Shown: piece after piece, positions 8,173 through 32,000 of the stretch
How the letters are laid out: each line of letters begins with the position of its first letter
How positions within the stretch are numbered: position 1 is the stretch's first letter
Assembly: GCF_000016745.1 (NCBI RefSeq)
Contig: NC_009483.1
Location: 2,490,001 to 2,522,000 of the forward strand
DNA from: Geotalea uraniireducens Rf4
Lineage (GTDB): Bacteria > Desulfobacterota > Desulfuromonadia > Geobacterales > Geobacteraceae
Direction: 5' to 3'
Length of the DNA: 32,000 nucleotides
Notes under the pieces: model-generated
What the model was told of the DNA's origin: nothing
The model's database searches: none
What the model saw: only the letters and a program-made list of their open reading frames with translations
Program-made: the position numbers and the translations under genes

Positions 8173-8207
8173 ATAATTCCCCCTTAGACTACACTGAGAT
8201 CATTAGA

Positions 8208-8636
8208 TTAAATTTTAATTTCCGAAAAATCATTCGCATACAACAAAATACGCACGGATTGGCGATTGCCTTTATCTACAGTATCATCTTGTGCCGCAAT
8301 ATACAAGTCAAGTCCCAGCTTATGTTTTATCCGCAAATATTGTTCAACTTCCTTGGCAAGATACAGCGACTTTTTCACCTTTTCATCTTTGCTGTTGGAG
8401 GGCGCAAAATAACCTTCTATTCTGACCACCTTCCCTTTCCCCAACATGATTAATTTGGGAACCAATGCATCAAGGTTATGCATGGCACGACCATCGGAGT
8501 TCAAGCTGCCTGTGCGAAAACTTATCTCTCCAATCTGTTCGCAACCTTCAGGAAGTGACTGATTGTCTCCCTGGGCGTATGTGAGTGTACACCAACCCAT
8601 TAATACAAGAAAACACACAATTCTAAACCGTTTCAT
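8208..8636 (-). CDS. secreted protein, possibly a degenerate OmpA-C-like domain
   Basis: 142 aa. Signal peptide MKRFRIVCFLVLMGWCTLTYAQG. VRIEGY...SLYLAKEV...NRQSVRILL loosely follows the OmpA-C pattern without the canonical peptidoglycan-binding residues. ATGA overlap with the upstream ompA-family gene. Confidence 0.6.
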   Translation of the reverse strand: MKRFRIVCFLVLMGWCTLTYAQGDNQSLPEGCEQIGEISFRTGSLNSDGRAMHNLDALVPKLIMLGKGKVVRIEGYFAPSNSKDEKVKKSLYLAKEVEQYLRIKHKLGLDLYIAAQDDTVDKGNRQSVRILLYANDFSEIKI

Positions 8637-10195
8637 CTGTTCCCCTTTGGAACGAGAAAGAGGACTTCAAAGCGACGGTTCATTCTTCTCCCATCAGTGG
8701 TGGAGTTGTCGGCGATTAACTTTGATTTTCCCATTCCTTTAACAAAGACGCGAGTCGGGTCTATGCCTTCTTTGATGATGAGATAACTGGCAATAGCAAT
8801 TGCACGCTTAATCGAAAGGTCCATATTGTAACCAACTGAACCAATACTGTCCGTATGACCATCTATACGTAAATACAACCATGTTTTATCAGTACGTGCT
8901 TGCTCGGCTACTTCCGACAAGGCTTTCTTCACTTCGTTCGACAACTCGATCTGGCCAAACTCAAACATAATATCCGGGAATCGGAACTTCCGATACACCG
9001 ACATTTTTTGTGAAATCTGCGTTGGCTTGGCATTCGAAACTTCAATATTGTCTCCCTTGACTTCGATCCCATAAAGTGGGGTTACCCCCTCCAAACTGGA
9101 CTCAGCAACAGGGTTTAATTCAGTCGCAATCTCAGCCTTCGGCTCGACGGGAATTTCACTTTCCAACTGAATCACCTTGGCTTCTCGGGGCAGCAACGGC
9201 ATAACAACGGGAGTCGAAACAGGTTGAGAAGGTATTGTTATCTGCCCGTAAGGCTTTATGACGATTTCTTCCTTGTCTGGATCGACCGGTATTTCTAATT
9301 TACTGGCCGGTACGATTGGTACAGCTGTTTTTATTAATGATGTGATCGGAATAATTTTGACCGGTTTTACTATTTCCTGTTTTTTATTTTTTTCATCATT
9401 CTCCGAGGCAAGCTTAGGAACCGCTTTTATATAGTTACCTATCCCCTGACAGGTAGAAAATCCGACGAGTGCCCGCCAATCGGGGCTAACAGAAGTAAGG
9501 CCGAACCCACCGGCTAAATTAAGCGTGAGGTGTGGTGAGATATAGTATTGGAGACCGACAGATCCCTCGACAGGGTAATCTGGAACATTGCTGCCGAATG
9601 GATTAGCTGCGTTCTTGCCAAAAACTTCCACAATTAATTTAGTTCTGGGGGTAGCCATATATTCAACACCGCCGCCATAAAGCAGTTCGTTATCGTAGGC
9701 ATTGCCGCCCGGGGCAAGGTAGCCGCCATAAAGATGGATTCCCACCCGATCCGTCTTTAATGAAGCTATGAGGCGTCCCCCCACATCGTTGATACCGTCA
9801 ACAGCTTTGTCTTCAGAAACATGCCGCTGAACAAATACATCCGCAGCAAGCTTTAGATTTGAATTCCTTTTTCCCAAAAATCGAATTTTAGCCCCTAAGT
9901 CGGCAGTACCTCTGCCCGAAGCATCTTCCTGGCCATTGAAAAGCAAGTTCGGATAGGTGCCATAAAATTCCAAGAAGGAACCCATGCCAAGAGTTACAGT
10001 TGCTGGCAGAATAGTAGAGTTTTTATTACCGGTGTTGCTGATATTACCCCAGATGCCAACACATATGTTTCCGGAATCCAACGTGTCGGCGGAAGGAACA
10101 TTGATAAGACCGGTGGCGCCGGTTTGGGTAGGGTTAGCGAATGCCAGCGAGGCAGGGATAATTATAGATAAAATCAATAAAATTAATATTTTCAT
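8633..10195 (-). CDS. OmpA-family outer-membrane protein (N-terminal beta-barrel, Pro/Val-rich linker, C-terminal OmpA/MotB peptidoglycan-binding domain)
   Basis: 520 aa. Signal peptide MKILILLILSIIIPASLAFA, then alternating beta-barrel-like sequence. Linker PVKIIPITS...PVVMPLLP. C-terminal motif IDGHTDSIGSVGYNMDLSIKRAIAIASYL...NRRFEVLF. Confidence 0.85.
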   Translation of the reverse strand: MKILILLILSIIIPASLAFANPTQTGATGLINVPSADTLDSGNICVGIWGNISNTGNKNSTILPATVTLGMGSFLEFYGTYPNLLFNGQEDASGRGTADLGAKIRFLGKRNSNLKLAADVFVQRHVSEDKAVDGINDVGGRLIASLKTDRVGIHLYGGYLAPGGNAYDNELLYGGGVEYMATPRTKLIVEVFGKNAANPFGSNVPDYPVEGSVGLQYYISPHLTLNLAGGFGLTSVSPDWRALVGFSTCQGIGNYIKAVPKLASENDEKNKKQEIVKPVKIIPITSLIKTAVPIVPASKLEIPVDPDKEEIVIKPYGQITIPSQPVSTPVVMPLLPREAKVIQLESEIPVEPKAEIATELNPVAESSLEGVTPLYGIEVKGDNIEVSNAKPTQISQKMSVYRKFRFPDIMFEFGQIELSNEVKKALSEVAEQARTDKTWLYLRIDGHTDSIGSVGYNMDLSIKRAIAIASYLIIKEGIDPTRVFVKGMGKSKLIADNSTTDGRRMNRRFEVLFLVPKGNR

Positions 10196-10322
10196 TATGA
10201 ATTATTAGTTTCGATAAGGTTATTGTATAAACGGCTGGCAAAAAGCGCAAAATTTCAATACATAATCAGAGATTACATTCCGTCATTCAACGTGACAACA
10301 GCTCACCTCTATCGGAATAACC

Positions 10323-10598
10323 TTAACCTGATACCTTTTCTTTAAGTTCTTTTCCAACCTTAAAAAATGGCAGTTTTTTTGATTTTACAGCTATAGACTC
10401 ACCTGTCTTTGGGTTTCTTCCCGTATAGGCCTGATAACCTTTAACTACAAAACTTCCAAAGCCCCTTATTTCAATGCGATCTCCATCCAACAAGGCATTG
10501 GTCATAGAGTCAAAAATCACATTGATTATCTCTTCGGCTTTTTTGTACGACAACCCTTTTTTTGTTGCCAAGGCTTCTATTAATTCTGATTTGTTCAT
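10323..10598 (-). CDS. ihfB: integration host factor subunit beta (HU/IHF family)
   Basis: Start moved to ATG 10598 (GGAGG SD). MNKSELIEALA...RIEIRGFGSF...TGRNPKTGE matches the IHF-beta signature. Confidence 0.85.
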   Translation of the reverse strand: MNKSELIEALATKKGLSYKKAEEIINVIFDSMTNALLDGDRIEIRGFGSFVVKGYQAYTGRNPKTGESIAVKSKKLPFFKVGKELKEKVSG

Positions 10599-10653
10599 AT
10601 TTAACGCCTCCAACAGAGCTTTCTATTAGTTAACCACAATCACCATTAGTTAA

Positions 10654-11688
10654 TCAACAGCATGCTTTCAGATAACGTTTTGAAATATAAGCAGCTTCTT
10701 CCACTCTATCATGCTTTTTCAGCAAAGAAACGAGTTTTTCTGCTGCTCCTCGGGCCACACCGGGTGATGACAGAGCTTTTGAGAAATTATCAATAGCCTT
10801 TAAATCGTCACCGATCATAACATAAACATCACCTAAAAGTACAAGAGCCTGGTCTGACAGCAATCCGAATTCAATCATATGATTAAGCACGGGAATAACC
10901 TCATGCAATCTGTCGGAATCAATCAACAGCTGAACTAGTCCCAGATAACAAAGTGAATTAGAAGGATTTATACTGATTGCTTGGCGAAGGAAACGCTCAC
11001 AATCAATAATTTCACCACACCTGTATTTTATTAGGGCAGCCTCATAGAGCAATATATCGTTTTCATTTTCCGATAACAATTCTTCTAATATTTGCAGGGC
11101 CTTAACATCATCGCCATCATGAATCAACAAATAAGCGCATGCAAATTTCTTTCCCAAAGCAGCATAGCGTTCCGGCAGAGGAGCAGGCAGGGTATGAATC
11201 AGGAGTTCGAATCTGTCCTCCATAGAGAGTTGGTCATCAGAAACATGGCTGTTTTCTGAAAGTTCTTCTGCTGAGGATTTACAGCCAAAACAGCCATTAT
11301 TATTATTAATTAAGTTGGTTGAATGATTTTGAACGGTTAGATTTTCCAGAAGCTTGCCAGCCTTTTCCCTAATCGTTACGTCTTCTGCCAATTCCATGAC
11401 CAGAAGAAGATGATCTTCTGCTTTAGATCGATCATTGCAGTTTATAGCATGCTCAGCTTCTAATAGATTCAAATCAGCCAGCCCATCATTGACAATGATT
11501 ATCTTATTTTGTAGCCGAAGCATGTCAGCTTTACCGGCATCATTTGTCGTATCAATTTTATCAATCGCTTCGCCATACGAGTATTTCGCATCAGCAAATC
11601 TGCCCTCTTGCAGAAATTTATCACCCTGCTCCATATAATAACGATAATTTTTTTGAAATAATTTATTGAATAACATATCCATACCCAC
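10654..11688 (-). CDS. TPR-repeat protein
   Basis: 344 aa, helical repeat composition with recurring A/Y/L TPR-like spacing. Start uncertain: GTG 11688, ATG 11682 or ATG 11676 (the last has the best spacing to AGGTGG). Confidence 0.65.
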   Translation of the reverse strand: MGMDMLFNKLFQKNYRYYMEQGDKFLQEGRFADAKYSYGEAIDKIDTTNDAGKADMLRLQNKIIIVNDGLADLNLLEAEHAINCNDRSKAEDHLLLVMELAEDVTIREKAGKLLENLTVQNHSTNLINNNNGCFGCKSSAEELSENSHVSDDQLSMEDRFELLIHTLPAPLPERYAALGKKFACAYLLIHDGDDVKALQILEELLSENENDILLYEAALIKYRCGEIIDCERFLRQAISINPSNSLCYLGLVQLLIDSDRLHEVIPVLNHMIEFGLLSDQALVLLGDVYVMIGDDLKAIDNFSKALSSPGVARGAAEKLVSLLKKHDRVEEAAYISKRYLKACC

Positions 11689-11718
11689 CTGCTAAGGCAA
11701 TGAAAAATCGCGAAGAAT

Positions 11719-13038
11719 TTATTCGGCCCTAAGTAGTGTAACGCTTTCTATATGATAAGTTTGTGGAAACATATCCACAGGTTGGCACTTTACAACTTCA
11801 TAATTACTTTTCTTAAGTATGTCGACATCTCTCGCCAGAGTAGCAGGATCGCAAGAAACATAAAGTATAAAATGTGGACTAACTGCATGAATCCGGCTGA
11901 CCACTTCAGCTGCTCCACACCTGGGAGGGTCAAGCAAAACTACGTCAAAACTTTCACCCGCAGCGGCCAGTTTTTTGACTTCCAAAGTCGCATCAGAACA
12001 ATAGAATTCTGCATTTGTTACATTATTGGACTCACAATTTTGGCGCGCATCGTTAATCGACTGTCCAAATTCTTCAAATCCTACCATACTTTGTGCAAAA
12101 CCAGCCAGAGGAATGGTAAAATTACCGTTACCACAGTAAAGATCAAGAACTTTTTCTTTGCCGGTAAGTTCAGCCCAGTTCCATACTAATTGAATAAGAT
12201 GCAGGTTTTGCTGGTAATTTACCTGTGAAAAGCTCCCTTTACCAAATGATAACCGCTTTGGTGAGCTGCCGGGGATGAAATTTTCCGGAATCTGATACGA
12301 AAGGCTTTCAATGCCAAAAACTTTACCAAGATTTGATTTATTTCCCCCTTGGATAAATATACCATCGGCAAAACCAAGCATTTTATTTTGTTCAAGAAGG
12401 AATTCGGAAAAACCGATATGCGCGGCGCCTGTATAATGCACAATAACAAGGGCACTTCCGTCATCACCTCTTGCCACGTCAATCTGGGGGACTGTATCCG
12501 GTTCTGGCAGATGCTGCAATAATTGGCGAAGTTTACTGATGATTCTGTTAATGTCGGCATGGGCAATGGCGCATATTTCAGGGATATCAATGACATCATG
12601 AGACTTGGTCCTGAAAAAGCCAAGGTGTGGCTTTCCATCTATAAAACGGACCTTTAACTGAATTCTTGATCGATAGCCATACGGTTCCTGAGCAGGAATA
12701 ACCGGTAAGATACGCTTTCGTTCCACCCGACCGGCACGCCACAAAAGTTCTGCAAAAATCTCCTCTTTTTCTTTAATCTGTGCCGAATAAGCAAGGTGTT
12801 GCCAGTTGCATCCTCCGCATATGCCAAAAACAGGACAGGTTGGCGTTACACGAAGATGCGACGGCTCAAGGAGTTCAATAAGTTCACCTTCAATGTATGA
12901 ACGCTTTTCTGCTGTCACCCGGATACTGGCCACGTCGCCAGGCGCCGTAAAGGGGACAAAGCATGCCTTGCCGTCCACTCGGCCAAAACCAGCCCCGCCG
13001 TTGGCGAGCTTTTCTATGGTTACGACTGCTTCACGCAT
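11719..13038 (-). CDS. rlmD: 23S rRNA (uracil-C5)-methyltransferase, RumA/RlmD family
   Basis: 439 aa. TRAM-like N-terminus, Fe-S Cys cluster CPVFGICGGCNWQH, SAM motif VLDLYCGNGNF, catalytic YVSCDPATLARD. Confidence 0.85.
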   Translation of the reverse strand: MREAVVTIEKLANGGAGFGRVDGKACFVPFTAPGDVASIRVTAEKRSYIEGELIELLEPSHLRVTPTCPVFGICGGCNWQHLAYSAQIKEKEEIFAELLWRAGRVERKRILPVIPAQEPYGYRSRIQLKVRFIDGKPHLGFFRTKSHDVIDIPEICAIAHADINRIISKLRQLLQHLPEPDTVPQIDVARGDDGSALVIVHYTGAAHIGFSEFLLEQNKMLGFADGIFIQGGNKSNLGKVFGIESLSYQIPENFIPGSSPKRLSFGKGSFSQVNYQQNLHLIQLVWNWAELTGKEKVLDLYCGNGNFTIPLAGFAQSMVGFEEFGQSINDARQNCESNNVTNAEFYCSDATLEVKKLAAAGESFDVVLLDPPRCGAAEVVSRIHAVSPHFILYVSCDPATLARDVDILKKSNYEVVKCQPVDMFPQTYHIESVTLLRAE

Positions 13039-13429
13039 GTAGATTTAGTGTATGTGCAGGATAAAAACCCTGTTTCTTCTTGCTCTTGTTTATTTCTGAC
13101 AATACCAGTTTTTTCGGCATGGTTGAGGGTATCAAGTATGGCAATGAATTTTGCTCGAAATTAACAATAAGCCTTTCTTTTACCTGTGAAACCTGAGAAG
13201 AAGGAACTCCCATCTGCTGCACCTTCCGGAGATGAACAATTGTTTCGCCCCAATGCGATTTTACTGCATTATAAGCAGAGATGGTATCGAAATACTCAGG
13301 CAATATCGGTACTTCACAGCGAATTTCAACAATTACCAGATAAAAATCGCCAAAATAGCGGCGAGTATTATCAATAAATAGAAGTTTCATGCCATTTGCA
13401 AGCGATATTTCCCGTAACAGATTATCCAT
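13031..13429 (-). CDS. hypothetical protein
   Basis: 132-aa ORF overlapping the rlmD start by 8 nt (same strand, operon-like). No motif recognised. Confidence 0.5.
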   Translation of the reverse strand: MDNLLREISLANGMKLLFIDNTRRYFGDFYLVIVEIRCEVPILPEYFDTISAYNAVKSHWGETIVHLRKVQQMGVPSSQVSQVKERLIVNFEQNSLPYLIPSTMPKKLVLSEINKSKKKQGFYPAHTLNLHA

Positions 13430-13568
13430 GAAATATTACTGCCTTTTCCACATTGTATGGTAAATTCCGATTGATGAAAATAATATGCTTTTCGTCGTTT
13501 TGTAAAGGTTTTTTTATTGCGATTCAATGAGGTGTAGAGGGTAGTAAAATGAAAGATATAAATCCGGC

Positions 13569-13597
13569 TTGCAATTTCAAATAAATGTTTGTAAACT
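13569..13597 (+). promoter_or_regulatory. candidate sigma70-type promoter upstream of infA
   Basis: TTGCAA (13569-13574), 17-nt spacer, TAAACT (13592-13597). Pattern only. Confidence 0.3.
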
Positions 13598-13646
13598 GTT
13601 CGTTTGTGATGGCATTAGCGCATACTAAACCTTGCTAGGAGTGAAA

Positions 13647-13865
13647 ATGAGTAAAGAAGAAGCGATTGAAGTTGAAGGCACGGTCATAGAACCCCTTCCT
13701 AATGCAATGTTCAAGGTCAAACTGGAGAACGACCACATTGTGCTCGCTCATATTTCCGGGAAAATGCGTAAGTACTTTATTAAAATACTTCCTGGTGACA
13801 AGGTAACGGTTGAACTTTCCCCTTACGATCTTACCCGAGGCCGTATAACATATCGCGCCAAGTAA
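13647..13865 (+). CDS. infA: translation initiation factor IF-1
   Basis: 72 aa from ATG 13647 (AGGAG SD). [42 protein letters not shown]...ITYR is near-universal IF-1 sequence. Confidence 0.95.
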
Positions 13866-14040
13866 GTCCGCCCCGCACCCAACGATTTCAAACAACGCAA
13901 GTATGTGGTTTGATGAAATCAAGCGATGTTCCGGCTAGCACCCCGGGAATCTCGGTATTGCTCTTTATCCCATGATCGGCACGTAACCGAACACGGCATA
14001 ATTTATGTAGAAAATCTATAGACGAGAAGGAAACAAGCTT

Positions 14041-21535: not shown

Positions 21536-21611
<76 letters not shown>

Positions 21612-21743: not shown

Positions 21744-21830
21744 GCCGGAGTGGTGAAATTGGTAGACGCACTGGACTCAAAATCCAGCGGGAGCAATCCC
21801 ATGCCGGTTCGACCCCGGCCTCCGGCACCA
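21744..21830 (+). tRNA. tRNA-Leu (anticodon CAA), type II with long variable arm
   Basis: GCCGGAGTGGTGAAATTGGTAGACGCACTGGACTCAAAATCCAGCGGGAGCAATCCCATGCCGGTTCGACCCCGGCCTCCGGCACCA. Anticodon loop CT-CAA-AA, 7-bp acceptor stem, encoded CCA. Closely resembles enterobacterial tRNA-Leu. Confidence 0.93.
21808..21830 (+). repeat. proximal copy of the 23-nt direct repeat (3' end of tRNA-Leu), candidate att core
   Basis: TTCGACCCCGGCCTCCGGCACCA recurs at 29639-29660 with a single G deleted. Confidence 0.55.
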
Positions 21831-21893: not shown

Positions 21894-22495
21894 GTGCGCC
21901 AGGCATGGCGCGTGGCGCGTAAGCGCCATCCAATTGGGTATGGTGCCTGATTGGTGACTTGGAGGTGAAAGTCCTCTTCGGACCCTGATGGTGGGAACCG
22001 ATAGCTGAACAGCAAGGGTGTCCGGGGCGACCCGGAATCTGAAGGAAGCTGTAGGCAAAGTCCTGGCCCGACGAACAGGAATCGCATATGAGGCAGCCAC
22101 ATCTGGGCGAGAAGGCAAACAGATTCAAAGCCCGATAACCATCCAGAAAGATGTGGAAGTAGATGCGGCGGGTATATGGGATGAAGGTCACGCGCATTAC
22201 CCTGGGAGGTCTGTCAACCTGCCTTGTGCTACCGGCATCGAGAGGTGCCGGGATGGGTTGGCAGAAGTCAGCAGAGGCCATACGAGTCGGAATAACCGAC
22301 CGACAAAGGGCCGAACTTGAAGTAAGCGGACAGGAGCCTTGAGTTTCGATGACGACAGGAGCAGCAGAAGGCCGGGTTGGGATACCCGGCGCCAGCCCGG
22401 AGGGTAGCGGTTGGAAACCGCGAGAGAAAGGGAGAGGTGCGGCAAACGTCACGGGAAGGAAAGCAGCTCACTGGCCGGAAGCGGCAACGGGACTG

Positions 22496-23752
22496 ATGGA
22501 GAAGATCGTCAGTCGCGGCAACATGATGGCGGCATACTCACGGGTAATGCGCAACAAGGGAGCGCCCGGCGTCGATAACATGCCGGTAACGGCCCTGAAG
22601 GGCTACCTACAGGAGGAATGGCCGCGCATCAGAGAAGAACTGCTGACGGGAACGTATCACCCGCAACCGGTGCGGAAAGTAGAAATTCCCAAACCGGGAG
22701 GCGGCACACGGATGCTGGGAATTCCCACCGTCCTTGACCGACTCATTCAGCAGGCGGTGCATCAAGTTTTGAGCCCGCTGTTCGACCCTGGTTTCTCCAT
22801 AAGTTCCCACGGGTTTCGCCCTGGACGGAGCGCCCATCAAGCGATCAAGGCAGCTCGGAAGTATGTAGAGAGCGGCCTTAGGTGGGTGGTTGACATTGAC
22901 CTTGAGAAATTTTTCGACCGAGTCCACCACGACACCCTTATGTCGCTGGTGAAACGCAAGGTTGGAGACCGTCTGGTGCTGTCCCTTATCGACAGCTACC
23001 TTAAGGCAGGGATACTTGAAGGAGGAGTGACGTCACCCCGGTTGGAAGGCACGCCGCAAGGCGGGCCTCTCTCGCCGCTGCTGTCCAACATCCTCCTCGA
23101 CGAACTGGACAAGAAACTGGAAAGAAGGGGCCATAAGTTCTGCCGCTATGCCGACGACGCAAATATCTATGTTGCAACGAGGAGAAGCGGCGAGCGTGTC
23201 ATGGCCTCAATTACCGGCTACCTGTCCGAGCGGCTCAAGCTCACGGTCAACCAGGGCAAAAGCGCGGTTGACCGTCCGTGGAAAAGGTCGTTTCTGAGTT
23301 ACAGCATGACCCGGCACCGCAAACCGCGGCTTACCGTGGCCAAGAAAGCGGCTGCCAGGCTCAAGGCCAACCTCAAGACGATCTTTAGGCGGGGAAGGGG
23401 TCAGAACATCCAAACCACCGTTGAAGAGACAACCCCGAAACTTAGGGGTTGGTTAAACTACTTTCGGTACGCGGAAGTAAAAGGCATCTTCGAGGAACTG
23501 GACGGATGGCTGAGACGTAAACTGCGTCGCATTCTCTGGAAGCAGTGGAAGCGCCCCAAGACGCGAGCAAAGAAACTGATGCGGCGGGGATTATCGGAGG
23601 CAACTGCATGGCGGTCGGCCACAAACGGCCGCGGCCCCTGGTGGAATGCAGGGGCCGCGCATATGAACAAAGCTGTTCCGAAATTCTACTTCGACAAACT
23701 GGGGCTGGTATCACTCATAGACCAGCTTCACCGACTTCAACGTACTTCATGA
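22496..23752 (+). CDS. group II intron reverse transcriptase/maturase (no endonuclease domain)
   Basis: Start taken at MEKIVSRGNMMAAY (ATG 22496); the longer track ORF from 22349 runs through ribozyme sequence. RT blocks PKPGGGTRMLGIPTVLDRLIQQA, HGFRPGRSAHQA, DIDLEKFFDRVHHD, GTPQGGPLSPLLSNILL and the YADD box (FCRYADDANIYV). Maturase X motif is LRGWLNYFRYA. The C-terminus ends ...FDKLGLVSL with no HNH Cys motifs. Confidence 0.9.
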   Translation: MEKIVSRGNMMAAYSRVMRNKGAPGVDNMPVTALKGYLQEEWPRIREELLTGTYHPQPVRKVEIPKPGGGTRMLGIPTVLDRLIQQAVHQVLSPLFDPGFSISSHGFRPGRSAHQAIKAARKYVESGLRWVVDIDLEKFFDRVHHDTLMSLVKRKVGDRLVLSLIDSYLKAGILEGGVTSPRLEGTPQGGPLSPLLSNILLDELDKKLERRGHKFCRYADDANIYVATRRSGERVMASITGYLSERLKLTVNQGKSAVDRPWKRSFLSYSMTRHRKPRLTVAKKAAARLKANLKTIFRRGRGQNIQTTVEETTPKLRGWLNYFRYAEVKGIFEELDGWLRRKLRRILWKQWKRPKTRAKKLMRRGLSEATAWRSATNGRGPWWNAGAAHMNKAVPKFYFDKLGLVSLIDQLHRLQRTS

Positions 23753-23784
23753 ACCGCCGTGTACGGAACCGTACGCACGGTGGT
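23753..23784 (+). ncRNA. group II intron domain V
   Basis: ACCGCCGUGUACG-GAAC-CGUACGCACGGUGGU. Lower 5-bp helix contains a CGC triad with a G.U wobble. There is a 2-nt AC bulge on the 3' strand and a 7-bp upper helix. This is the canonical domain V architecture. Confidence 0.8.
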
Positions 23785-23786
23785 GT

Positions 23787-23820
23787 GGGAGGACGGCGGG
23801 AGCAATCCCGCCTCCTACCC
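23787..23820 (+). ncRNA. group II intron domain VI with bulged branch-point A (23817)
   Basis: GGGAGGA-C-GGCGGGA-GCAA-UCCCGCC-UCCU-A-CCC. GNRA-capped helix with a single unpaired A, 6 nt before the proposed 3' splice site. Confidence 0.7.
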
Positions 23821-23825
23821 GATTT

Positions 23826-24206: not shown

Positions 24207-25531
24207 GAGGGTGTAAAAAGGTTTGTGTAAATGGTCATTAGGGGGTACACCAAGTTACCCTAAGGAGATCACATGACTATTAACACCGACGTAATCGACG
24301 ATCTACTCAAACATTATAAGACCCCCGAAGAGATTCTAGGGGAAAACGGGCTGCTGAAGCAGTTGACCAAGGCTGTTCTTCAGCGGGCGCTCCAGGCTGA
24401 AATGACACTGCACCTCGGCCACGAGAAGCATGCTTCCGTTTCCGCCAAAGGTGGCAATGCACGCAATGGCTCGTCGGCAAAGACCATCAAAGGCGATTTT
24501 GGCACCATGCCGATTGAGGTCCCTCGTGACCGGGATAGCAGCTTTGAACCAGTCATCATTCCCAAAGGCCAAACCCGGTTCGCCGAGTTCGATGATAAGA
24601 TTATCTCCCTGTACTCCCGCGGGCTTACCACTCGTGAGATCCAGGGACACTTGGAGGAAATCTACGGTGTTGAAGTATCCCCCGCTCTGATTTCAATAGT
24701 GACTGAAGCAGTAGCTGAAGAGGTCAAAGCTTGGCAGAACCGCCCGTTGGATGCGCTTTATCCCATCGTTTACATGGATGCCATCAGGGTCAAAGCCAGA
24801 GGCAATGGCCATGTTGTGAACAAGGCTGTCTATCTGGCCATCGGCATCAACATAGACGGTGCCAAGGAAGTTCTGGGAATGTGGGTCTCCGAAAACGAAG
24901 GAGCCAAGTTCTGGTTGCAGGTTGTGACCGAACTTAAGAACCGTGGTGTCCAAGACATCTTCATTGCCTGCGTTGACGGCCTGAAGGGGTTCCCTGAGGC
25001 CATAGAAATAGTTTATCCCAACACTCAAGTCCAACTTTGCATCGTCCATATGGTACGCAATTCCTTGAAGTTCGTTTCGTGGAAACAACGCAAAGAAGTT
25101 GCGACAGATTTGAAGGTTATCTACCAGTCAGCGACCGCTGAGCAGGCCGAAATGGAACTGACAGCATTTGAGGCAAAATGGGACAAAACACACCCGACGA
25201 TCAGCCAGTCCTGGCGCCGGAACTGGGCGCAAGTTATACCATTTTTTGCCTATCCAGCTGATATACGAAAGGTTATTTACACAACCAATGCCATTGAATC
25301 ACTGAATATGTCACTCAGAAAGGTGACCAAAAACCGGGGCTCGTTTCCCAATGATGAGGCAATGTTCAAGTTACTATACCTGGCGCTGAGAAACATCGCG
25401 AAGAAATGGACCCTGCCGATCAGAGACTGGAAAGCTGCCATGAACCGCTTTTCCATTCTTTTTGAAGACAGAATGCCAAGCTATTAAAAACAGGGAACCA
25501 AAACCATTTACACAAAACTATTGACAGGCCC
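24207..25531 (+). mobile_element. IS256-family insertion sequence (1325 bp)
   Basis: Single mutator-type transposase ORF. Imperfect 29-bp terminal inverted repeats: GAGGGTGTAAAAAGGTTTGTGTAAATGGT at 24207-24235, against the reverse complement of 25503-25531, GGGCCTGTCAATAGTTTTGTGTAAATGGT (22/29 identical). Flanked by an 8-bp direct repeat, the size expected for IS256-family elements. Confidence 0.88.
24273..25487 (+). CDS. IS256-family (mutator-type) DDE transposase
   Basis: 404 aa with AAGGAG SD. Conserved blocks LKQLTKAVLQRALQAEMTLHLG, IVYMDAIRVK (D), FIACVDGLKGFPEAI (D), IYTTNAIESLNMSLRK (E). Confidence 0.93.
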   Translation: MTINTDVIDDLLKHYKTPEEILGENGLLKQLTKAVLQRALQAEMTLHLGHEKHASVSAKGGNARNGSSAKTIKGDFGTMPIEVPRDRDSSFEPVIIPKGQTRFAEFDDKIISLYSRGLTTREIQGHLEEIYGVEVSPALISIVTEAVAEEVKAWQNRPLDALYPIVYMDAIRVKARGNGHVVNKAVYLAIGINIDGAKEVLGMWVSENEGAKFWLQVVTELKNRGVQDIFIACVDGLKGFPEAIEIVYPNTQVQLCIVHMVRNSLKFVSWKQRKEVATDLKVIYQSATAEQAEMELTAFEAKWDKTHPTISQSWRRNWAQVIPFFAYPADIRKVIYTTNAIESLNMSLRKVTKNRGSFPNDEAMFKLLYLALRNIAKKWTLPIRDWKAAMNRFSILFEDRMPSY

Positions 25532-25638: not shown

Positions 25639-26589
25639 CTATGGCCTTATCTCAACAATCGTACCATTTGGCGCTAACTTGGCAATTTCCTCTATTTCTT
25701 CGTCTGTTACGGCAATACACCCTTTCGTCCAGTCAACCTCTGTGTGAAAATCACCAACCCACGAGAAACCATTCTTAATTCCGTGGATCATGATGTTTCC
25801 GCCCGTAGAAACACCTAGTTCTTTTGCTCGCTTTTTGTCTCTCTCGTTTGGATAGGAAATATGAAGAGATAGGTGATAATGGCTGTCCTTGTTTCTTGAA
25901 TCGATGAAGTAGGTTCCCTCCGGGGTTTTGTTATCGCCTTGCCTTTCTTTTGGACCATTCGGGTTTCCCCCCAAGGCTATCTTGTAGGTTTTGAGCACCT
26001 CCCCCTTTGAGATCAACATCAATCGTCGTTCTTTTTTTTCTATCAGAATCTTATCTACCAATCCTTTCTGGATTGCAAAAGCAAAAACCTTTTGTTCTAG
26101 CGCTTTAATCTTTTTTTGCAGTGTAATAATTTCATTCCCCCTGCTTTCAACCTCTTGCTGGAGAGTCTCAATTTGTGTTTGCTGCGTGGTAATCATCTTA
26201 TCCTTGATAGTGACATTATTGATATAAAATATCATCCTCTCACTGTCCTGCCTGTACCCACTCCCTGGGTAGTCCTTTATGAGTTTCTGAAAACATTCCA
26301 GGGATTTCTGATAATCTTTTTGCTCATTCTTCGGATGCGCATAAATAATACCCATCTCGAATAGAACCCTGTCTCCCGTCGTGGGATATTTTTCAATAAT
26401 CTGCTCATATTTGTTCAGAGAGGCCTTGTAGTTTCCCTGGCTAAAAGAATTATTTGCTTCTTCGAAGGTTGACTTGGCCTGGAATCCTTCACTAAAGTGA
26501 CTGCATCCGCACATTAGAATTGATGTTATTATGATGCAGATAAAGAAAAAGAAAAGGTGCTCACCCTTCCTGCTTTGTTTTTTACCCAT
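25639..26589 (-). CDS. YafK/DpaA-like L,D-transpeptidase-fold lipoprotein with N-terminal TPR-like and coiled-coil region
   Basis: The C-terminal 150 aa, ERRLMLISKGEVLKTYKIALGGNPNGPKERQGDNKTPEGTYFI...YHLSLHISYPN...GGNIMIHG...DWTKGCIAVTDEEIEEI, match the YafK-type YkuD fold, including catalytic His and Cys. Start chosen at MGKKQSRKGEHLFFFFICIIITSILMCGC (26589, lipoprotein-like). ATG 26652 has a better SD (AAGGGGTGAGGAG), so the start is uncertain. Confidence 0.8.
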   Translation of the reverse strand: MGKKQSRKGEHLFFFFICIIITSILMCGCSHFSEGFQAKSTFEEANNSFSQGNYKASLNKYEQIIEKYPTTGDRVLFEMGIIYAHPKNEQKDYQKSLECFQKLIKDYPGSGYRQDSERMIFYINNVTIKDKMITTQQTQIETLQQEVESRGNEIITLQKKIKALEQKVFAFAIQKGLVDKILIEKKERRLMLISKGEVLKTYKIALGGNPNGPKERQGDNKTPEGTYFIDSRNKDSHYHLSLHISYPNERDKKRAKELGVSTGGNIMIHGIKNGFSWVGDFHTEVDWTKGCIAVTDEEIEEIAKLAPNGTIVEIRP

Positions 26590-26768
26590 ATATGTCAAAG
26601 ACGGTCTAAATCTTTTAGACAGTACAATTTGGAAGATTCTCAGTTCCCTCATCTCCTCACCCCTTGGCAGAAGCATCAGGAATATCTTGTGCTAAGAGCC
26701 TGATATCCTGGCTTAACAGGTTAAATGCTTGAGTCGTCCAGACAGACTTAAATGATGGATAAGGAAAT

Positions 26769-26790
26769 GGCAGGGTTTTGAGACCCTGCC
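26769..26790 (-). terminator. terminator hairpin after the Lpp-like gene
   Basis: Minus strand GGCAGGGU-CUCAAA-ACCCUGCC followed by AUUUCCUUAU. 8-bp GC-rich stem, 53 nt after the stop codon. Confidence 0.5.
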
Positions 26791-26843
26791 ACTTCATTAT
26801 CCGGAGCGCTAAAGGTAAAGTTAACAGCTCCCTTAAAATTGAC

Positions 26844-27122
26844 TTACTTCCTCATCGATTTCTGGAAAGCGGCGTCAGCTCTTTTCGCCTTTTCATCTGC
26901 GATCCTTTCCCTTTCCAATGCCGCCTTTTCAGCATCATCTGCCTTTAACTTGGCCACATCGGCTGCCGCCTTGGCAGCTTGCGCATCCTGCAATGCCTGA
27001 TCAGCTTTCGCATCAATCAGTTTTTGCTGCGCCTGCACTTTCTCGAGCTCACCGGTTGTTGCACAACCCATCATAGTAACGAGAACAAGCATCATTGAAA
27101 TCACCAAAAGACTTTTCTTCAT
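26844..27122 (-). CDS. Braun-lipoprotein-like small alpha-helical lipoprotein with C-terminal Lys
   Basis: 92 aa, strong SD (AAAGGAGGTG). Signal peptide ends ...LVTMMGC. The mature protein (about 73 aa) is Ala/Lys/Asp/Gln-rich with a heptad pattern (KVQAQQKLIDAKADQALQDAQAAKAAADVAKLKADDAEKAALE) and ends ...KSMRK. Compare E. coli Lpp, which ends ...TKYRK. Confidence 0.75.
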   Translation of the reverse strand: MKKSLLVISMMLVLVTMMGCATTGELEKVQAQQKLIDAKADQALQDAQAAKAAADVAKLKADDAEKAALERERIADEKAKRADAAFQKSMRK

Positions 27123-27301
27123 CTCTAATCACCTCCTTTCTGTTCAGTTTACATTATTTTAATAGTGACTGTTAAAATCCAGCGCTACTTCACAAATAAT
27201 ATTCACATTGGTTATTGATTGGTTGCAAGAACATATACCAGGAAGAGGGAACGCGTGAAGTTCACAATATCTCCCCTGAACATAAGAAAAGCTGGGATCG
27301 A

Positions 27302-28621
27302 CTATCTCTTCTTGACAGGTTCAATCAATATACCGTCTATTTCCAAATCAATTTTCAAGCGTTTGGTTGCATCTTTGGCCTCACTGATATCATTGAAAGG
27401 GCCAGCGATAACACGGTAGCTATTGCTCTTTGATAACACCATTGCCGGGATTTGTGGACCCTGGTGGTTGATAATGGTGGCAATCCTCAGAGCTTCAATC
27501 TCGTCACGCACATCAGCAGCCAAAACATACCACGCCTCCATTTTCAGTTCTGGTATTTCCGGTCTGCCATACAATTTGTCTGGGTGCTCGACTTCTATGG
27601 TTCTCGAAGCCTCTTTTTCACTTCCTTGACTCATCTCGAAGATGGGAACAGGAATCCCTCGGGCCTCGGCCTGCACTTCCTTAACTTTTCTCCAGTCAAG
27701 CGTGCGCGCCGATTTCTTTTCAATATTTCTCAATTTTGCGTATGTCTTCTCTAGCTCAATAGCGCCCGAGTCTTCCAGAGGCGTATGAGCTTCCATGTAA
27801 AGTACTCCATTACGTTGACCTATGAGATATGGCTGGTTAACAATGACTACAGGGGTATTAACTGGAGTGTCATCGTAGAGCATCTTCACGTTTTCTGGAT
27901 ATAGTCTCAAGCAGCCATTGGTTGCTTTAAGACCAATGCTGGCAGGTTTATTAGTACCATGGATCAAATAACCCGATTTGCTTAAATAGAGCGCGCATTC
28001 TCCCAAGGGATTTTGAGGTCCCGGCGGAACTTCTGCGGGCAGAGGATCGCCTTTTTTTCTATGATCCTCAGAAATTGAAGCAGGCACATGCCAGGTCGGC
28101 CGGGTTGCCTTGCGCTCCACATGCATTTGACCTGTGGGCGTGGGTCGCTCCTTGGTTCCGACACCGACCGGGTAGGTCGACACCACCAGTGACTTACTAT
28201 CCCCTTTAAATTGAAAGAGCCTCATGGTGGCTAAGTTGACCACAATGCCTTTTCTGGGAGCGTCCGGCAGGATAAAACTCAGAGGCAACATGATACGCTC
28301 TCCGGCCTCAGGCACCCATACATCTACCCCTGGATTAGCTGCACTGATTGCAATGATCCCCAGACTGAAGTGTCTTGCAATATCCGGTAGCGTATCCCCC
28401 TTTTCAAGCCTGATGACTGCCAACCGACCAATGACGTCATCTCCTCTTGCAACCGAAAACTCATTTCGTTCGATCTCCTTTTCAGGATGGCTTGGAAAAA
28501 GCCAGGATTTCTCCTGAACACTGTTCATAACAGCACATCCATTGAGAGATAAGATGAATGTACATAGAGCTATAAGACGAAGCCAATTGGATAAGAGTGA
28601 CAGGTCAACGATTCGGCACAT
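27302..28621 (-). CDS. L,D-transpeptidase of the ErfK/YbiS/YcfS/YnhG type: lipoprotein signal, LysM-like, YkuD catalytic and C-terminal SPOR domains
   Basis: 439 aa. Signal/lipobox LIALCTFILSLNGC. LysM-like LEKGDTLPDIARHFSLGIIAISAANPGV. FILPDAPRKGIVVNLATMRLFQF...PTPTG...RPTWHVPASI...NPLGECALYL...YLIHGTNKPASIGLKATNGCLRL carries the catalytic His and Cys. SPOR-like AWYVLAADVRDEIEALRIA...YRVIAGPFNDISEAKDATKRL. Confidence 0.87.
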   Translation of the reverse strand: MCRIVDLSLLSNWLRLIALCTFILSLNGCAVMNSVQEKSWLFPSHPEKEIERNEFSVARGDDVIGRLAVIRLEKGDTLPDIARHFSLGIIAISAANPGVDVWVPEAGERIMLPLSFILPDAPRKGIVVNLATMRLFQFKGDSKSLVVSTYPVGVGTKERPTPTGQMHVERKATRPTWHVPASISEDHRKKGDPLPAEVPPGPQNPLGECALYLSKSGYLIHGTNKPASIGLKATNGCLRLYPENVKMLYDDTPVNTPVVIVNQPYLIGQRNGVLYMEAHTPLEDSGAIELEKTYAKLRNIEKKSARTLDWRKVKEVQAEARGIPVPIFEMSQGSEKEASRTIEVEHPDKLYGRPEIPELKMEAWYVLAADVRDEIEALRIATIINHQGPQIPAMVLSKSNSYRVIAGPFNDISEAKDATKRLKIDLEIDGILIEPVKKR

Positions 28622-28786
28622 GGGTTAAATAAGCTACCTTTCTCAAAAATGAAAATTAATATAAATAAAAGAAATAAAAGAAGAAATAAAAGAGTCAGCC
28701 CTTGACACGGGACAAATGGCCCCCCCTCAGCTCTATGCGTCTTTAAAAGCGCAGCTCTTGCTGACTCGACCTCCTTTTTATGTTTT

Positions 28787-28900
28787 GACAACAAAAAAGC
28801 CGGGACCGAATATCGTGTGATATTTCGGCAACCCGGCTGTCTCAGTGAGACCCTGTAGGCTTTCCGCCCCACCCTCGCGGATGGTTGAGTATTATCGTTT
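28787..28900 (-). promoter_or_regulatory. GEMM-I-like cyclic-dinucleotide riboswitch unit 1 (aptamer about 28822-28900, terminator 28787-28837)
   Basis: Minus strand: AAUACUCAACC-AUCC-GCGA-GGGU-GGGGCGGAAAGCCUACAGGGUCUCACUGAGACAGCCGGGUUGCCGAAAUAUC-ACAC-GAUAUUCGGUCCCGGC-UUUUUUGUUGU. It resembles the c-di-GMP-I aptamer core (GNRA hairpin, ACGCAAAGCC-like junction, AGCNGGGUURCCGA 3' segment). The terminator 5' arm is the aptamer 3' segment. Confidence 0.6.
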
Positions 28901-28971
28901 ATCACTAACCGTCATAATACGGTGCCCTTTAAAGGCGCACCTCTTGCTGACTCGACCTCCTTTTATGTTTT

Positions 28972-29085
28972 GACAACAAAAAAGCCGGGACCGAATATCG
29001 TGTGATATTTCGGCAACCCGGCTGTCTCAGTAAGACCCGTAGGCTTTCCGCCCCATTCTTGCGAATGGTTAAGTATTATCGTCTA
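28972..29085 (-). promoter_or_regulatory. GEMM-I-like cyclic-dinucleotide riboswitch unit 2 (aptamer about 29007-29085, terminator 28972-29022)
   Basis: Paralogous copy: AAUACUUAACC-AUUC-GCAA-GAAU-GGGGCGGAAAGCCUACGGGUCUUACUGAGACAGCCGGGUUGCCGAAAUAUC... with an identical terminator. Stem differences from unit 1 all preserve pairing. Confidence 0.6.
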
Positions 29086-29105
29086 TCTCTCAAACATTTT
29101 TTTGC

Positions 29106-29133
29106 ATCTTACATTTCTATAAAGATTTGTCAA
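29106..29133 (-). promoter_or_regulatory. candidate promoter for the riboswitch leader
   Basis: Minus strand TTGACA (29133-29128), 16-nt spacer, TAAGAT (29111-29106), about 25 nt upstream of aptamer 2. Pattern only. Confidence 0.3.
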
Positions 29134-29910: not shown

Positions 29911-30939
29911 TCAGTAAGCCTGCTTATCCTCCAGCACTTCCTCTACCGTCACTTTGCCGCGGAAAACCCGATAGACCCAGATTTTATAGGCGATGACAAT
30001 CGGCAAAAACATCGCCACCACCAATGTCATGATCTTCAATGTATAGGGACTGGAGGACGAATTGAAGATTGTCAGACTATGTGCAGGATCGAGATTGGAA
30101 GGTATCAGATTCGGGAAAAGGCCAATGACGCCGGTAAAAACGACCATGAGAATCGTTACGCATGAAGAGGCGAATGCACCTAGCAGGTTGCCCTTTGCAG
30201 TAAGGATTCTGATTCCGAGCAGGGCCGCTACAGCCAGGAGCGGTACGATAAGTAAATAAGGAGCGCTGAAGTAATTGTCGTAGAGCCGTGATGCAAATTT
30301 TGTATAGCCAAGGAACGCCACCGCAACCACGAGGAGTGCAGGCCAGAGTTTATCAGCCATGGCATGGGCACGCCGGCTCAGGTCGCCGACGGTCTTGACC
30401 GAAAGGTAAAGAGCACCGTGTATCAGGAAAAGAAGCACAAACAGTATGCCGGTCAACAGTCCATAAGGATTCAGCAGGTAAATGAGCGACCCGTGATACC
30501 CCGTTGCATCCATGGGCAGACCGGCAAAGATGTTACCGAAAGCAACCCCGAAAAGAAGCGCCGGGAGAAAACTGCTGACAACAATGGCAAAATCCCATGA
30601 TCGTTTCCATAGGGCACTATCCTCTTTACCCCTGAATTCAAATGAAACCCCGCGGACAATAAGCGCAAACAACAGCAGCAGCAGAGCCGTGTAGAGATAA
30701 CTGAACATCAGCGCGTAGGTGGTGGGAAATGCTGCAAAGGTGGCGCCGCCTGCTGTTATCAACCAGACCTCGTTGCCGTCCCAGACAGGACCGATCGTAT
30801 TGATGATTACCCGCCGGTCACCATCGTTTTTTCCGAGAAAGATATGAAGCATGCCGGTGCCGAGCACAAAACCGTCTAGCATGAAATAGACTGCCCACAG
30901 TACAGCCCAAAGAACGAACCATAATATCTGTAATTCCAT
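29911..30939 (-). CDS. cydB: cytochrome bd ubiquinol oxidase subunit II
   Basis: Start moved to ATG 30939 (AGGAGGAGGG SD). MELQILWFVLWAVLWAVYFMLDGF is the typical CydB N-terminus. Polytopic throughout. Confidence 0.9.
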   Translation of the reverse strand: MELQILWFVLWAVLWAVYFMLDGFVLGTGMLHIFLGKNDGDRRVIINTIGPVWDGNEVWLITAGGATFAAFPTTYALMFSYLYTALLLLLFALIVRGVSFEFRGKEDSALWKRSWDFAIVVSSFLPALLFGVAFGNIFAGLPMDATGYHGSLIYLLNPYGLLTGILFVLLFLIHGALYLSVKTVGDLSRRAHAMADKLWPALLVVAVAFLGYTKFASRLYDNYFSAPYLLIVPLLAVAALLGIRILTAKGNLLGAFASSCVTILMVVFTGVIGLFPNLIPSNLDPAHSLTIFNSSSSPYTLKIMTLVVAMFLPIVIAYKIWVYRVFRGKVTVEEVLEDKQAY

Positions 30940-30952
30940 AATTTCCCTCCTC

Positions 30953-32000
30953 CTAATTTCTTGTCGGTTTAATGATGGCTGAAAGATCGTCATCCGGCCC
31001 TTTTCGGGCAAGCTTGGTCAGCAGATAGATATCGATGCAGCCGAGTGTGCCGTAAAGGAGGGTAAAGCCGATCAGCGAAACGAGAACCTGGGGAGTACTG
31101 ATGGCTTTGGAAACGGCATCCGAGGTCTTTAGAACGCCGTAGACGATCCAGGGTTGACGCCCCATTTCAGCCACAATCCAGCCGAGTTGATTGGCGATGT
31201 AGGGAAGTGGAAGAGCAAACAACATGATCTTGAGAAACAGCGGATAGTTTTCCAGTTTCCCTTTTCGGGAGAGAAATACCGCGACCAGCGAAAGGACGAA
31301 GAACAGGATGCCGAGACCGACCATGAGCCTGAAGCTGTAGAAAACCGGTGTGACCGGCGGACGTTCCGATTTGGGGAAGTCCTTCAAACCTTTGATTTCC
31401 GCATTTGGCGTATGAAATGCCAGCAAGCTCACCATGTTGGGGATGCAGATACGTTCGAGGGCGTTACATTCCTTAATCTCATCGGGAATAAGCAAAAGGT
31501 TCAACCCTACTCCGCGCTTGGTTTCCCAGACCGACTCCATGGCAGCGAATTTGGCCGGCTGGGTCTTGGCCACCTCCACCGCATGGAAATCGCCGATGAC
31601 CGCCACCAGCAGGGTAGAAACCAGGCCGAAGGTCGCCGCCATCTTGAAGGAAGTTTTAAAAAAATCCGGCTTGTTTTTTTTCAGGAGATGCCACGCGGAT
31701 ACACCCATGACAAAGAACGCCGCCACCGTGTAACCGGAAACAATCTGGTGACCGAACTTCAGAAGGCCGTAGGGGTTTGTCACCATTGCCATGAAATCCA
31801 CCATCTCTGCCCTGCCGTTTCTCAGCACATACCCCACCGGATGCTGCATCCAACCGTTGGCCAACAGTATCCAGAGACCGGATAGATTTGTTGCGATGGC
31901 TACCAGCCAGATGGATATGGCGTGCATTTTCTTCGACACCTTGTTCCAGCCGAATATCCAGACGCCGATAAACACGGACTCCAGGAAGAATGCCATGGTC
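30953..32000 (-). CDS. cydA: cytochrome bd ubiquinol oxidase subunit I, C-terminal part (N-terminus beyond the window end)
   Basis: AFFLESVFIGVWIFGW, the Q-loop region, and GWIVAEMGRQPWIVYGVLKT are hallmark CydA segments. The frame is open to the window edge. Confidence 0.9.
   Translation of the reverse strand, partial: TMAFFLESVFIGVWIFGWNKVSKKMHAISIWLVAIATNLSGLWILLANGWMQHPVGYVLRNGRAEMVDFMAMVTNPYGLLKFGHQIVSGYTVAAFFVMGVSAWHLLKKNKPDFFKTSFKMAATFGLVSTLLVAVIGDFHAVEVAKTQPAKFAAMESVWETKRGVGLNLLLIPDEIKECNALERICIPNMVSLLAFHTPNAEIKGLKDFPKSERPPVTPVFYSFRLMVGLGILFFVLSLVAVFLSRKGKLENYPLFLKIMLFALPLPYIANQLGWIVAEMGRQPWIVYGVLKTSDAVSKAISTPQVLVSLIGFTLLYGTLGCIDIYLLTKLARKGPDDDLSAIIKPTRN

Follow-up and report, generated by a model that had tools for sequence, protein, structure and literature searches.

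A 32,000-nucleotide (nt) stretch of Geotalea uraniireducens Rf4 DNA (contig NC_009483.1, positions 2,490,001 to 2,522,000 of the forward strand; here called the window and numbered from its first letter) carries three adjacent genes that probably encode a system for attaching a covalent tether, which would join the outer membrane to the peptidoglycan, and for detaching it again. Among the readings that we weighed, this one is best supported by homology, motifs, and gene context. The first gene encodes an L,D-transpeptidase (LDT) with a C-terminal SPOR domain (Ldt-SPOR), the second a coiled-coil lipoprotein (the tether), and the third a YkuD-fold enzyme preceded by a TPR head and a long helix (the stalked enzyme). 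A previous annotation made from the letters alone (the sequence-only reading) had placed three same-strand genes behind a tandem riboswitch leader. An open reading frame (ORF) scan and two matches to Rfam family RF01051 agree with this layout: all three ORFs are on the minus strand, at 27302-28621 (439 aa), 26844-27122 (92 aa), and 25639-26676, and their products are exact matches to ABQ26348 (Ldt-SPOR), ABQ26347 (tether), and ABQ26346 (stalked enzyme). Read along the minus strand, the elements are a promoter-like site, two GEMM-I aptamers, the Ldt-SPOR gene, the tether gene, a hairpin, and the gene for the stalked enzyme. The three gene products have the following features.

27302 to 28621, minus strand: Ldt-SPOR, predicted lipoprotein of 439 aa (ABQ26348), assigned from domain and homology results; lipobox Cys29; LysM-like region at about 60-120; YkuD domain at 124-260 (nt 27842-28252) with the catalytic Cys237 in TNGCLRL; LdtA-E-like C-terminal region to about 333; SPOR domain at 362-432 (nt 27326-27538)
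26844 to 27122, minus strand: tether, predicted Lpp/OprI-family alanine-zipper lipoprotein of 92 aa (ABQ26347), matching NF040598 and PF11839; lipobox Cys20; mature form of 73 aa; C terminus ...SMRK; strong Shine-Dalgarno (SD) sequence (AAGGAGGTGA) upstream
25639 to 26589, minus strand: stalked enzyme, predicted TPR-stalk-YkuD lipoprotein of 316 aa from the MGKK start (RefSeq starts ABQ26346 at 26652); lipobox Cys29; BamD-like TPR at about 35-112 (nt 26254-26487); single long helix at about 113-174 (nt 26068-26253); YafK/DpaA-type YkuD domain at 181-314 (nt 25648-26049) with the catalytic Cys291 in TKGCIAV

The lipobox Cys is invariant in the ortholog alignments of all three proteins, and all three are predicted to be lipoproteins. 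In the model that we favor, the operon would form a self-contained covalent tether system that joins peptidoglycan and outer membrane. The coiled-coil lipoprotein would be anchored in the outer membrane through its lipid-modified N terminus and joined through its C-terminal Lys to meso-diaminopimelic acid (meso-DAP) in the peptidoglycan. Ldt-SPOR, a member of the LdtPae2/ErfK lineage, would most likely make the Lys-DAP bond, while its SPOR domain would hold it on peptidoglycan, possibly on denuded septal glycan. The third product, presumably an outer membrane lipoprotein with a TPR head, a rigid helical stalk of 60 to 88 residues, and a DpaA-type YkuD domain, would most likely hydrolyze the Lys-DAP bond, with the stalk holding the catalytic domain level with the tether C terminus. 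In the Geobacterales, the operon would be transcribed only when cyclic GMP-AMP (cGAMP) occupies the GEMM-Ib aptamers, one to three in tandem, and keeps the terminator from forming.

The three genes form a co-conserved unit

A scan in which each species was represented by a single genome, with a stalked-enzyme alignment as the query, returned 80 loci, from the Geobacteraceae, Desulfuromonadales, Syntrophales, other Desulfobacterota, and 21 Nitrospirota metagenome-assembled genomes (MAGs), some of them on megabase contigs. Of 81 loci, the window included, 73 hold the three genes side by side and in one orientation by tblastn. Contig ends cut seven of the eight others, so that the genes are contiguous in 73 of the 74 informative loci; in L066, the sole real exception, a fragment of a group II intron maturase lies upstream. 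The sequence-only reading had proposed a self-contained module, and this is supported by the conservation of the genes together in relatives.

The order Ldt-SPOR, tether, stalked enzyme is found in 66 loci, is rotated in six, and is permuted in one. Since the order changes in these seven loci without loss of adjacency, adjacency appears to be maintained beyond simple descent. There is no conserved fourth gene or shared synteny around the cassette, and no flanking ORF family is common to more than six loci. The GC content of the cassette is below that of its flanks in 58 of 65 loci, and the two enzymes are 65 to 89% identical to the window proteins, Nitrospirota included. Kept adjacency, unshared flanks, low cassette GC, and high identity across phyla together suggest a self-contained unit and horizontal transfer of the three genes. 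In loci L005, L006, L010, L015, L018, and L079 and other Nitrospirota, the cassette proteins are 70 to 85% identical to those of the Geobacteraceae and the flanks are unrelated.

Ldt-SPOR is a candidate tether-attaching enzyme

All of the motifs quoted in the sequence-only reading are present in the proteins (FILPDAPR, RPTWHVPASI, and YLIHGTNKPASIG..NGCLRL in the upstream enzyme; SLHISYPN, IMIHG, and TKGCIAV in the downstream one). It had called the upstream enzyme ErfK/YbiS/YcfS-type; profile and homology matches support a place in the ErfK/YbiS/YcfS/YnhG/LdtPae2 lineage, including a score of 80.4 bits with the Pfam YkuD family (PF03734), and the SPOR domain that it noted at the C terminus scores 31.3 bits (residues 362-432) against a gathering score of 21. 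The proposal of a LysM-YkuD core stands in part. The core is collinear with LdtA-E and with LdtPae2, and residues 60-333 align with positions 32-308 of the 322-position LdtE profile (173 bits, against a cutoff of 480), but the LysM match is below the Pfam threshold (13.4 bits versus a gathering score of 20.9; E = 0.08), and this region can be called LysM-like only. The catalytic motif, TNGCLRL in the window, has the form [ST]NGC[ILM]RL in 70 of 70 orthologs; the SxGChR form of this motif is typical of transpeptidases (PMC10434034).

Several observations weigh against a role of Ldt-SPOR in tether attachment and are in line with the strongest of the competing explanations, in which the SPOR enzyme is a 3-3 cross-linker like Escherichia coli LdtE that strengthens septal or stress-exposed peptidoglycan, and attachment of the tether falls to the stalked enzyme or to one whose gene lies elsewhere. 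NCBIfam ranks LdtE first for Ldt-SPOR, at the 173 bits given above. In BLASTP comparisons, E. coli LdtA, LdtB, LdtC, and LdtE are indistinguishable (162, 161, 159, and 154 bits, respectively; 34 to 38% identity), and a call between attachment and cross-linking from these near-equal scores was abandoned. [quoted passage not shown] In E. coli, lpp adjoins the gene for the cross-linker LdtE, and adjacency to the tether gene therefore proves little. A SPOR domain would also suit a peptidoglycan-directed enzyme.

These points are set against the nearest solved relative of Ldt-SPOR, PDB 9tyw (231.6 bits, 41% identity), which is 100% identical to a 323-aa Pseudomonas aeruginosa protein of the ErfK lineage. 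Of the three LDTs in P. aeruginosa, the OprI-anchoring LdtPae2 alone belongs to the ErfK lineage (PMC10434034). Because it would be the sole ErfK-lineage member of the three, we infer, by elimination rather than by an accession match, that 9tyw is LdtPae2. Ldt-SPOR would then be nearer to an OprI-anchoring enzyme (41% identity, 224 to 232 bits) than to the E. coli paralogs (154 to 162 bits), and this closer similarity is the only lead that points to anchoring over cross-linking. In addition, the genes for the SPOR enzyme and the tether show strict co-conservation across 73 loci, those with permuted orders included. On balance, we consider the cross-linker explanation unlikely and retain Ldt-SPOR as the probable attaching enzyme. 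The SPOR domain could possibly target it to the septum; a 2025 review of LDTs makes no mention of SPOR- or TPR-bearing members.

The stalked enzyme resembles DpaA

Ortholog alignment A1 shows that the third gene has its conserved start (MGKKQSR) at 26589; no SD sequence is evident before it. An SD-like sequence, GGTGAGGAG, abuts the ATG at 26652 that RefSeq takes as the start. The suggestion that the tether gene and the third gene each have an SD sequence of their own thus stands for the first, where the signal is strong, but not for the conserved start of the second.

The description of the downstream enzyme as DpaA/YafK-like is well founded. E. coli DpaA is its top match among E. coli proteins (BLASTP, 36% identity over 144 aa, E = 1e-14, with LdtC at E = 0.009) and in the PDB (8ikr, E = 1e-8), and Pfam reports a YkuD domain (70.6 bits) together with YfiO/BamD-like TPR matches. 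The catalytic motif T.GCIAV, the SxGChA or hydrolase form, is present in 80 of 80 orthologs. DpaA residues K83, Y109, and M133 are important by mutagenesis or structure (PMC10653827), and their equivalents are invariant in the stalked enzyme (the Lys of GPKE..QGD, the Tyr of S(R/H)Y, and the Met of IMIHG). The D-Ala-pocket position is Met, as in DpaA, rather than the Trp of carboxypeptidases. The catalytic motifs of the two enzymes of the operon divide cleanly, with the transpeptidase type, SxGChR, in the SPOR enzyme and the hydrolase type, SxGChA plus the DpaA residues, in the stalked enzyme.

Other features of the protein argue against a DpaA-like activity. Its score with the DpaA equivalog NF040599 is 43.6 bits, against a cutoff of 365. 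The positions of DpaA K130 and Y131 hold G and N/D, respectively, and a Y131A mutant of DpaA has just 4% activity left. The catalytic His and Cys are 22 residues apart, versus 8 in DpaA, owing to a 14-residue insert, and the DpaA C-terminal tail is missing. An AlphaFold2 model built from a 20-sequence alignment is poor in the YkuD domain (pLDDT, the per-residue confidence score, <50).

The same model is confident for the TPR and for a single 62-residue helix, which fits an outer membrane-anchored enzyme reaching the tether C terminus at the peptidoglycan. The fusion of the YkuD domain to a TPR head and stalk distinguishes the protein from the single-domain DpaA. Among library representatives at 50% identity, essentially one or two clusters have this architecture in full length; the other members are stand-alone YkuD proteins of 160 to 230 aa, with about 50 to 57% identity.

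Tether and stalk lengths change together

The mature tether has 73, 80, 87, 94, 101, or 108 residues (73 + 7n) in 71 of 73 loci, the steps reflecting the copy number of a whole AKIADEK heptad. Across loci, the stalk helix between the TPR and YkuD domains varies from 60 to 88 residues, and its length follows that of the tether (Spearman coefficient, 0.78). On a tree built without the variable segments, independent contrasts gave an r of 0.68 (70 contrasts), with the same sign in 27 of the 28 contrasts in which both lengths change. Sister loci illustrate the steps: tether and stalk measure 73 and 62 residues in the window versus 80 and 69 in L007, and 94 and 74 in L013 versus 87 and 67 in L015, a difference of one heptad in each protein. 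The argument is weakened by the dominance of two large clades in the correlation, although about eight separate co-changes of tether and stalk are visible in the tree.

No correlation with tether length was found for the core, middle, and SPOR segments of Ldt-SPOR. Its Cys-to-core linker was considered as another segment that might track the tether and was rejected, since it is 31 aa long in most cases and its rho is weak (0.37). To our reading, the heptad-step tether lengths and the matching stalk lengths are new here. The coupling supports action of the stalked enzyme at the junction between tether and wall and is silent on whether the bond is made or broken there.

The length match would thus fit any activity at the tether C terminus, including those of a second competing explanation, in which the stalked YkuD protein, rather than releasing Lpp as an amidase, is an L,D-carboxypeptidase that trims stem peptides (as do Csd6, Pgp2, and Bd1075) or an atypical transpeptidase that attaches the tether. 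Bd1075 (7o21) is the second YkuD match of the stalked enzyme in the PDB (E = 4e-5), the His-to-Cys spacing is like that of canonical LDTs, and the two nonconserved DpaA residues, K130 and Y131, would be accommodated. Set against this are the Met in the D-Ala pocket, the presence of SxGChA, and never of SxGChR/N, in all orthologs, and the rank of DpaA as by far the top match. We give this explanation a low probability and continue to regard detachment as the more plausible activity of the stalked enzyme.

The tether belongs to the Lpp/OprI family

RefSeq already names the product of the middle gene an Lpp/OprI family alanine-zipper lipoprotein, and its scores are well above the cutoffs for NF040598 (90.6 versus 43 bits) and for the PF11839 Alanine_zipper family (42.9 versus 23.1 bits). 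Hydrophobic residues or Ala make up 64% of heptad register 2 and 80% of register 6, and the lipobox Cys is aligned in all complete orthologs. The C-terminal residue is Lys in 76 of 77 orthologs, with SMKK, SMRK, SMMK, or SMLK as the ending, and a bond from this Lys to meso-DAP is predicted. The protein is 28% identical to E. coli Lpp, and no match to the enterobacterial LPP profile PF04728 was obtained at an E value of ≤0.01. That the tether is not covalently bound at all, and serves as a free spacer or surface protein while the two enzymes remodel peptidoglycan independently, would be in keeping with the large pool of free Lpp in E. coli but is very unlikely in view of the near-invariant terminal Lys after a conserved SM[KR], the tight clustering of the gene with an anchoring-lineage LDT and a DpaA-like enzyme, and the co-variation of tether length with the enzyme stalk.

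Elsewhere in the literature, the Geobacter sulfurreducens protein GSU0182 is listed as a "murein lipoprotein," and Mandela et al. (2022) noted Lpp proteins of unusual length (99 or more residues) in Geobacter. Three loci have apparent frameshifts or truncations, which may be either pseudogenes or MAG assembly errors: the L003 tether is reduced to 21 mature residues, and the high-scoring segment pairs of an enzyme are split in L019 and L075.

A riboswitch leader precedes the operon in the Geobacterales

The leader contains the following elements; the gathering score of RF01051 is 35 bits, and R1 is a covariance model that we built from 10 aptamers.

29106 to 29133, minus strand: candidate sigma-70-like promoter, TTGACA-16-TAAGAT, 5' of aptamer 1, from a consensus scan (10 of 12 matches; a pattern match only)
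29005 to 29088, minus strand: GEMM-I aptamer 1, 51.9 bits with RF01051 (match at 29009-29084) and 113 bits with R1
28978 to 29023, minus strand: predicted terminator 1, followed by U6; -25.6 kcal/mol, z = -4.8; the 3' part of aptamer 1 serves as its 5' arm
28820 to 28904, minus strand: GEMM-I aptamer 2, a near-duplicate of aptamer 1, 42.6 bits with RF01051 (match at 28824-28900) and 108.7 bits with R1
28793 to 28838, minus strand: predicted terminator 2, whose hairpin sequence is that of terminator 1; -25.6 kcal/mol, z = -4.65

A hairpin and then a U6 tract lie 3' of each aptamer, and the 3' portion of the aptamer doubles as the 5' arm of the hairpin; therefore, ligand binding should block termination. 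The leader is thus predicted to consist of two ON switches in series, in agreement with the tandem ligand-ON riboswitch of the sequence-only reading. The Rfam alignment shows both aptamers with A at RF01051 model position 10, which is aligned to G20, and with the equivalents of A47 and C92 kept, under what we take to be the correspondence between model positions and Vc2 numbering. An A at the G20 position with A47 and C92 kept is the cGAMP-selective GEMM-Ib signature, and the aptamers are predicted to be of this class. The c-di-GMP-I-GGC variant RF03167 was also considered. With permissive settings it scored 52.4 and 43.9 bits, marginally above RF01051 and below its own gathering score of 59, and its defining middle position needs G, where both window aptamers (28823-29083) have A.

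The sequence-only reading regarded a link between a cyclic dinucleotide and outer membrane tethering as undescribed. For the operon itself, though not for its interpretation as a tether system, such a link is already published, in G. sulfurreducens. Hallberg et al. (2019) reported that the tandem GEMM-Ib riboswitches GSUR3002 and GSUR3001 precede GSU0183-GSU0182-GSU0181 (PMC6456294). In their transcriptome sequencing (RNA-seq) data, expression of GSU0183, GSU0182, and GSU0181 was 53, 175, and 128 in the wild type, 96, 286, and 219 in an esnD deletion strain, and 3, 7, and 6 in a strain lacking gacA, which encodes the cGAMP synthase; loss of gacA thus lowered the operon approximately 16- to 25-fold (PMC6456294). 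The products were termed "uncharacterized lipoprotein transpeptidases," and the tethering reading is absent from that work (PMC6456294). While cGAMP dependence has been shown for the G. sulfurreducens ortholog, the same ligand response at the G. uraniireducens leader is predicted.

With R1, counting sites directly upstream of the first gene, one to three aptamers were found in 22 of 22 Geobacterales/Desulfuromonadales loci, in 10 of 25 other "delta" loci, and in none of 12 Nitrospirota loci. A direct Rfam scan of 15 loci gave a pattern in agreement with R1. Conservation of the riboswitch with the module, which had been proposed as a test, thus holds in the first group but not in the Nitrospirota; hence, the riboswitch is no intrinsic part of the core module and is a lineage-specific addition. 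One locus has triple tandem aptamers before the operon, and several have an extra GEMM-I aptamer a few kilobases away, before unrelated genes (triple and extra aptamers are at L008 3612-4120, L028 4807-4891, L007 8456-8541, L052 8709-8793, and L029 10500-10583).

In loci without a riboswitch, we found no alternative conserved leader; conservation is limited to the last ~17 nt before the start codon. These ~17 nt 5' of the first gene (CTTATTTRACCCATG; 28622-28640 in the window, minus strand) are kept across phyla, while the rest of the leader is variable, and they do not include a canonical SD sequence before the Ldt-SPOR start.

A conserved hairpin follows the tether gene

The sequence-only reading placed a hairpin between the tether gene and the gene for the stalked enzyme, and a strong fold is found there.

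26757 to 26802, minus strand: conserved RNA hairpin ~50 to 55 nt 3' of the tether stop codon; -31.2 kcal/mol, z = -9.2

A stem-loop of 17 to 20 bp with the core GUGGCAGGG...CCCUGCCAC is present at this position in 60 loci of the Desulfobacterota and Nitrospirota. At 10 of 11 predicted pairs at least 97% of the cells are paired, the outermost pair reaching 90% (54 of 60), and there are a few compensatory changes. The hairpin is not a canonical terminator, since its T-rich 3' side is itself paired. In G. sulfurreducens, RNA-seq recorded a "predicted RNA" at the hairpin position, at a level above the flanking genes (PMC6456294). The structure may serve to stabilize the mRNA of the tether or, as an attenuator, to limit read-through into the gene for the stalked enzyme. 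Its conservation is a new, if minor, finding.

Surroundings of the cassette in the window

The following features lie around the operon.

29911 to 31996, minus strand: genes for cytochrome bd oxidase subunits II and I, upstream of the riboswitch promoter and on the same strand
24273 to 25487, plus strand: Mutator-family (IS256-like) transposase gene directly downstream of the cassette (PF00872, 425.8 bits)
22021 to 23823, plus strand: complete group II intron (Rfam D1-D4 and domain V/VI matches) with a reverse transcriptase and maturase ORF at 22349-23752
21744 to 21827, plus strand: tRNA gene adjoining the group II intron
21539 to 21611, minus strand: a second tRNA gene, likewise adjoining the group II intron

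The cytochrome bd oxidase genes are not conserved beside the cassette in other loci. A low-GC stretch at 7000-14000 (0.39 to 0.46, versus ~0.50 to 0.56 elsewhere in the window) is unrelated to the cassette.

Relation to known tether systems

The closest parallel to the proposed system is in P. aeruginosa. OprI is of the same alanine-zipper Lpp/OprI family and shares the Arg/Lys-Lys ending of the tether; LdtPae2 shares SxGChR with Ldt-SPOR, alongside the 41% identity to the inferred LdtPae2; and LdtPae3, a YafK-like protein proposed to release OprI, is of the YafK type with SxGChA, like the stalked enzyme (PMC10434034). OprI anchoring is increased in the surface (biofilm) lifestyle (PMC10434034). 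In contrast to P. aeruginosa, the genes here form one operon, both enzymes are predicted lipoproteins, the LDT with a SPOR domain and the YafK-type one with a TPR head and long stalk, the tether ranges from 73 to 108 residues in heptad steps, a cGAMP riboswitch is present in the Geobacterales, and the enzyme activities are predicted.

The E. coli system, Lpp with LdtA/B/C for attachment and DpaA/LdtF/YafK for detachment, would share the predicted linkage of a C-terminal Lys to meso-DAP. The stalked enzyme holds the equivalents of DpaA K83, Y109, M133, and A145, and Ldt-SPOR is collinear with LdtA-E. The differences lie in the tether, with its low identity to Lpp and no PF04728 match, in the DpaA equivalog score below the cutoff, and in extra domains that are absent in E. 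coli; the genes of the system are also scattered there, and only ldtE, for a cross-linker, adjoins lpp. The G. sulfurreducens operon GSU0183-0181 is alike by annotation and architecture, with a tandem riboswitch, a SPOR-YkuD protein, a 100-aa lipoprotein, and a TPR-YkuD protein (PMC6456294); the paper describing it proposes no attach/detach or tether model (PMC6456294). What the parts are and how they are regulated was therefore already known, whereas none of the papers found states an attach/detach model for the operon.

[quoted passage not shown] Unlike those engineered changes, the present case is a natural co-variation of a tether with the stalk of its own neighboring enzyme, in six heptad classes. 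We put forward, tentatively and as more doubtful than the attach/detach model itself, that the cassette could be a portable kit for ruling the periplasm: a heptad-quantized tether would set the distance from outer membrane to wall, a releasing enzyme would act from a co-evolving stalk, the unit would move horizontally among the Desulfobacterota and Nitrospirota, and cGAMP control in the Geobacterales would reset tethering or spacing on the switch to particle-associated extracellular electron transfer.

Covalent tethering of the Lpp type is widely presented as limited to a few gammaproteobacterial orders. If the attach/detach model is true, an OprI-type system complete with its enzymes extends to the Desulfobacterota and Nitrospirota, in a form easily tested genetically, as one operon whose switch has been characterized in G. 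sulfurreducens. The series of tether lengths with matching stalks is a natural experiment on how the width of the periplasm is set and sensed. The model would also assign a role to an uncharacterized operon that is among the most strongly cGAMP-dependent in Geobacter, and it would tie second-messenger signaling in metal oxide respiration to the mechanics of the cell envelope.

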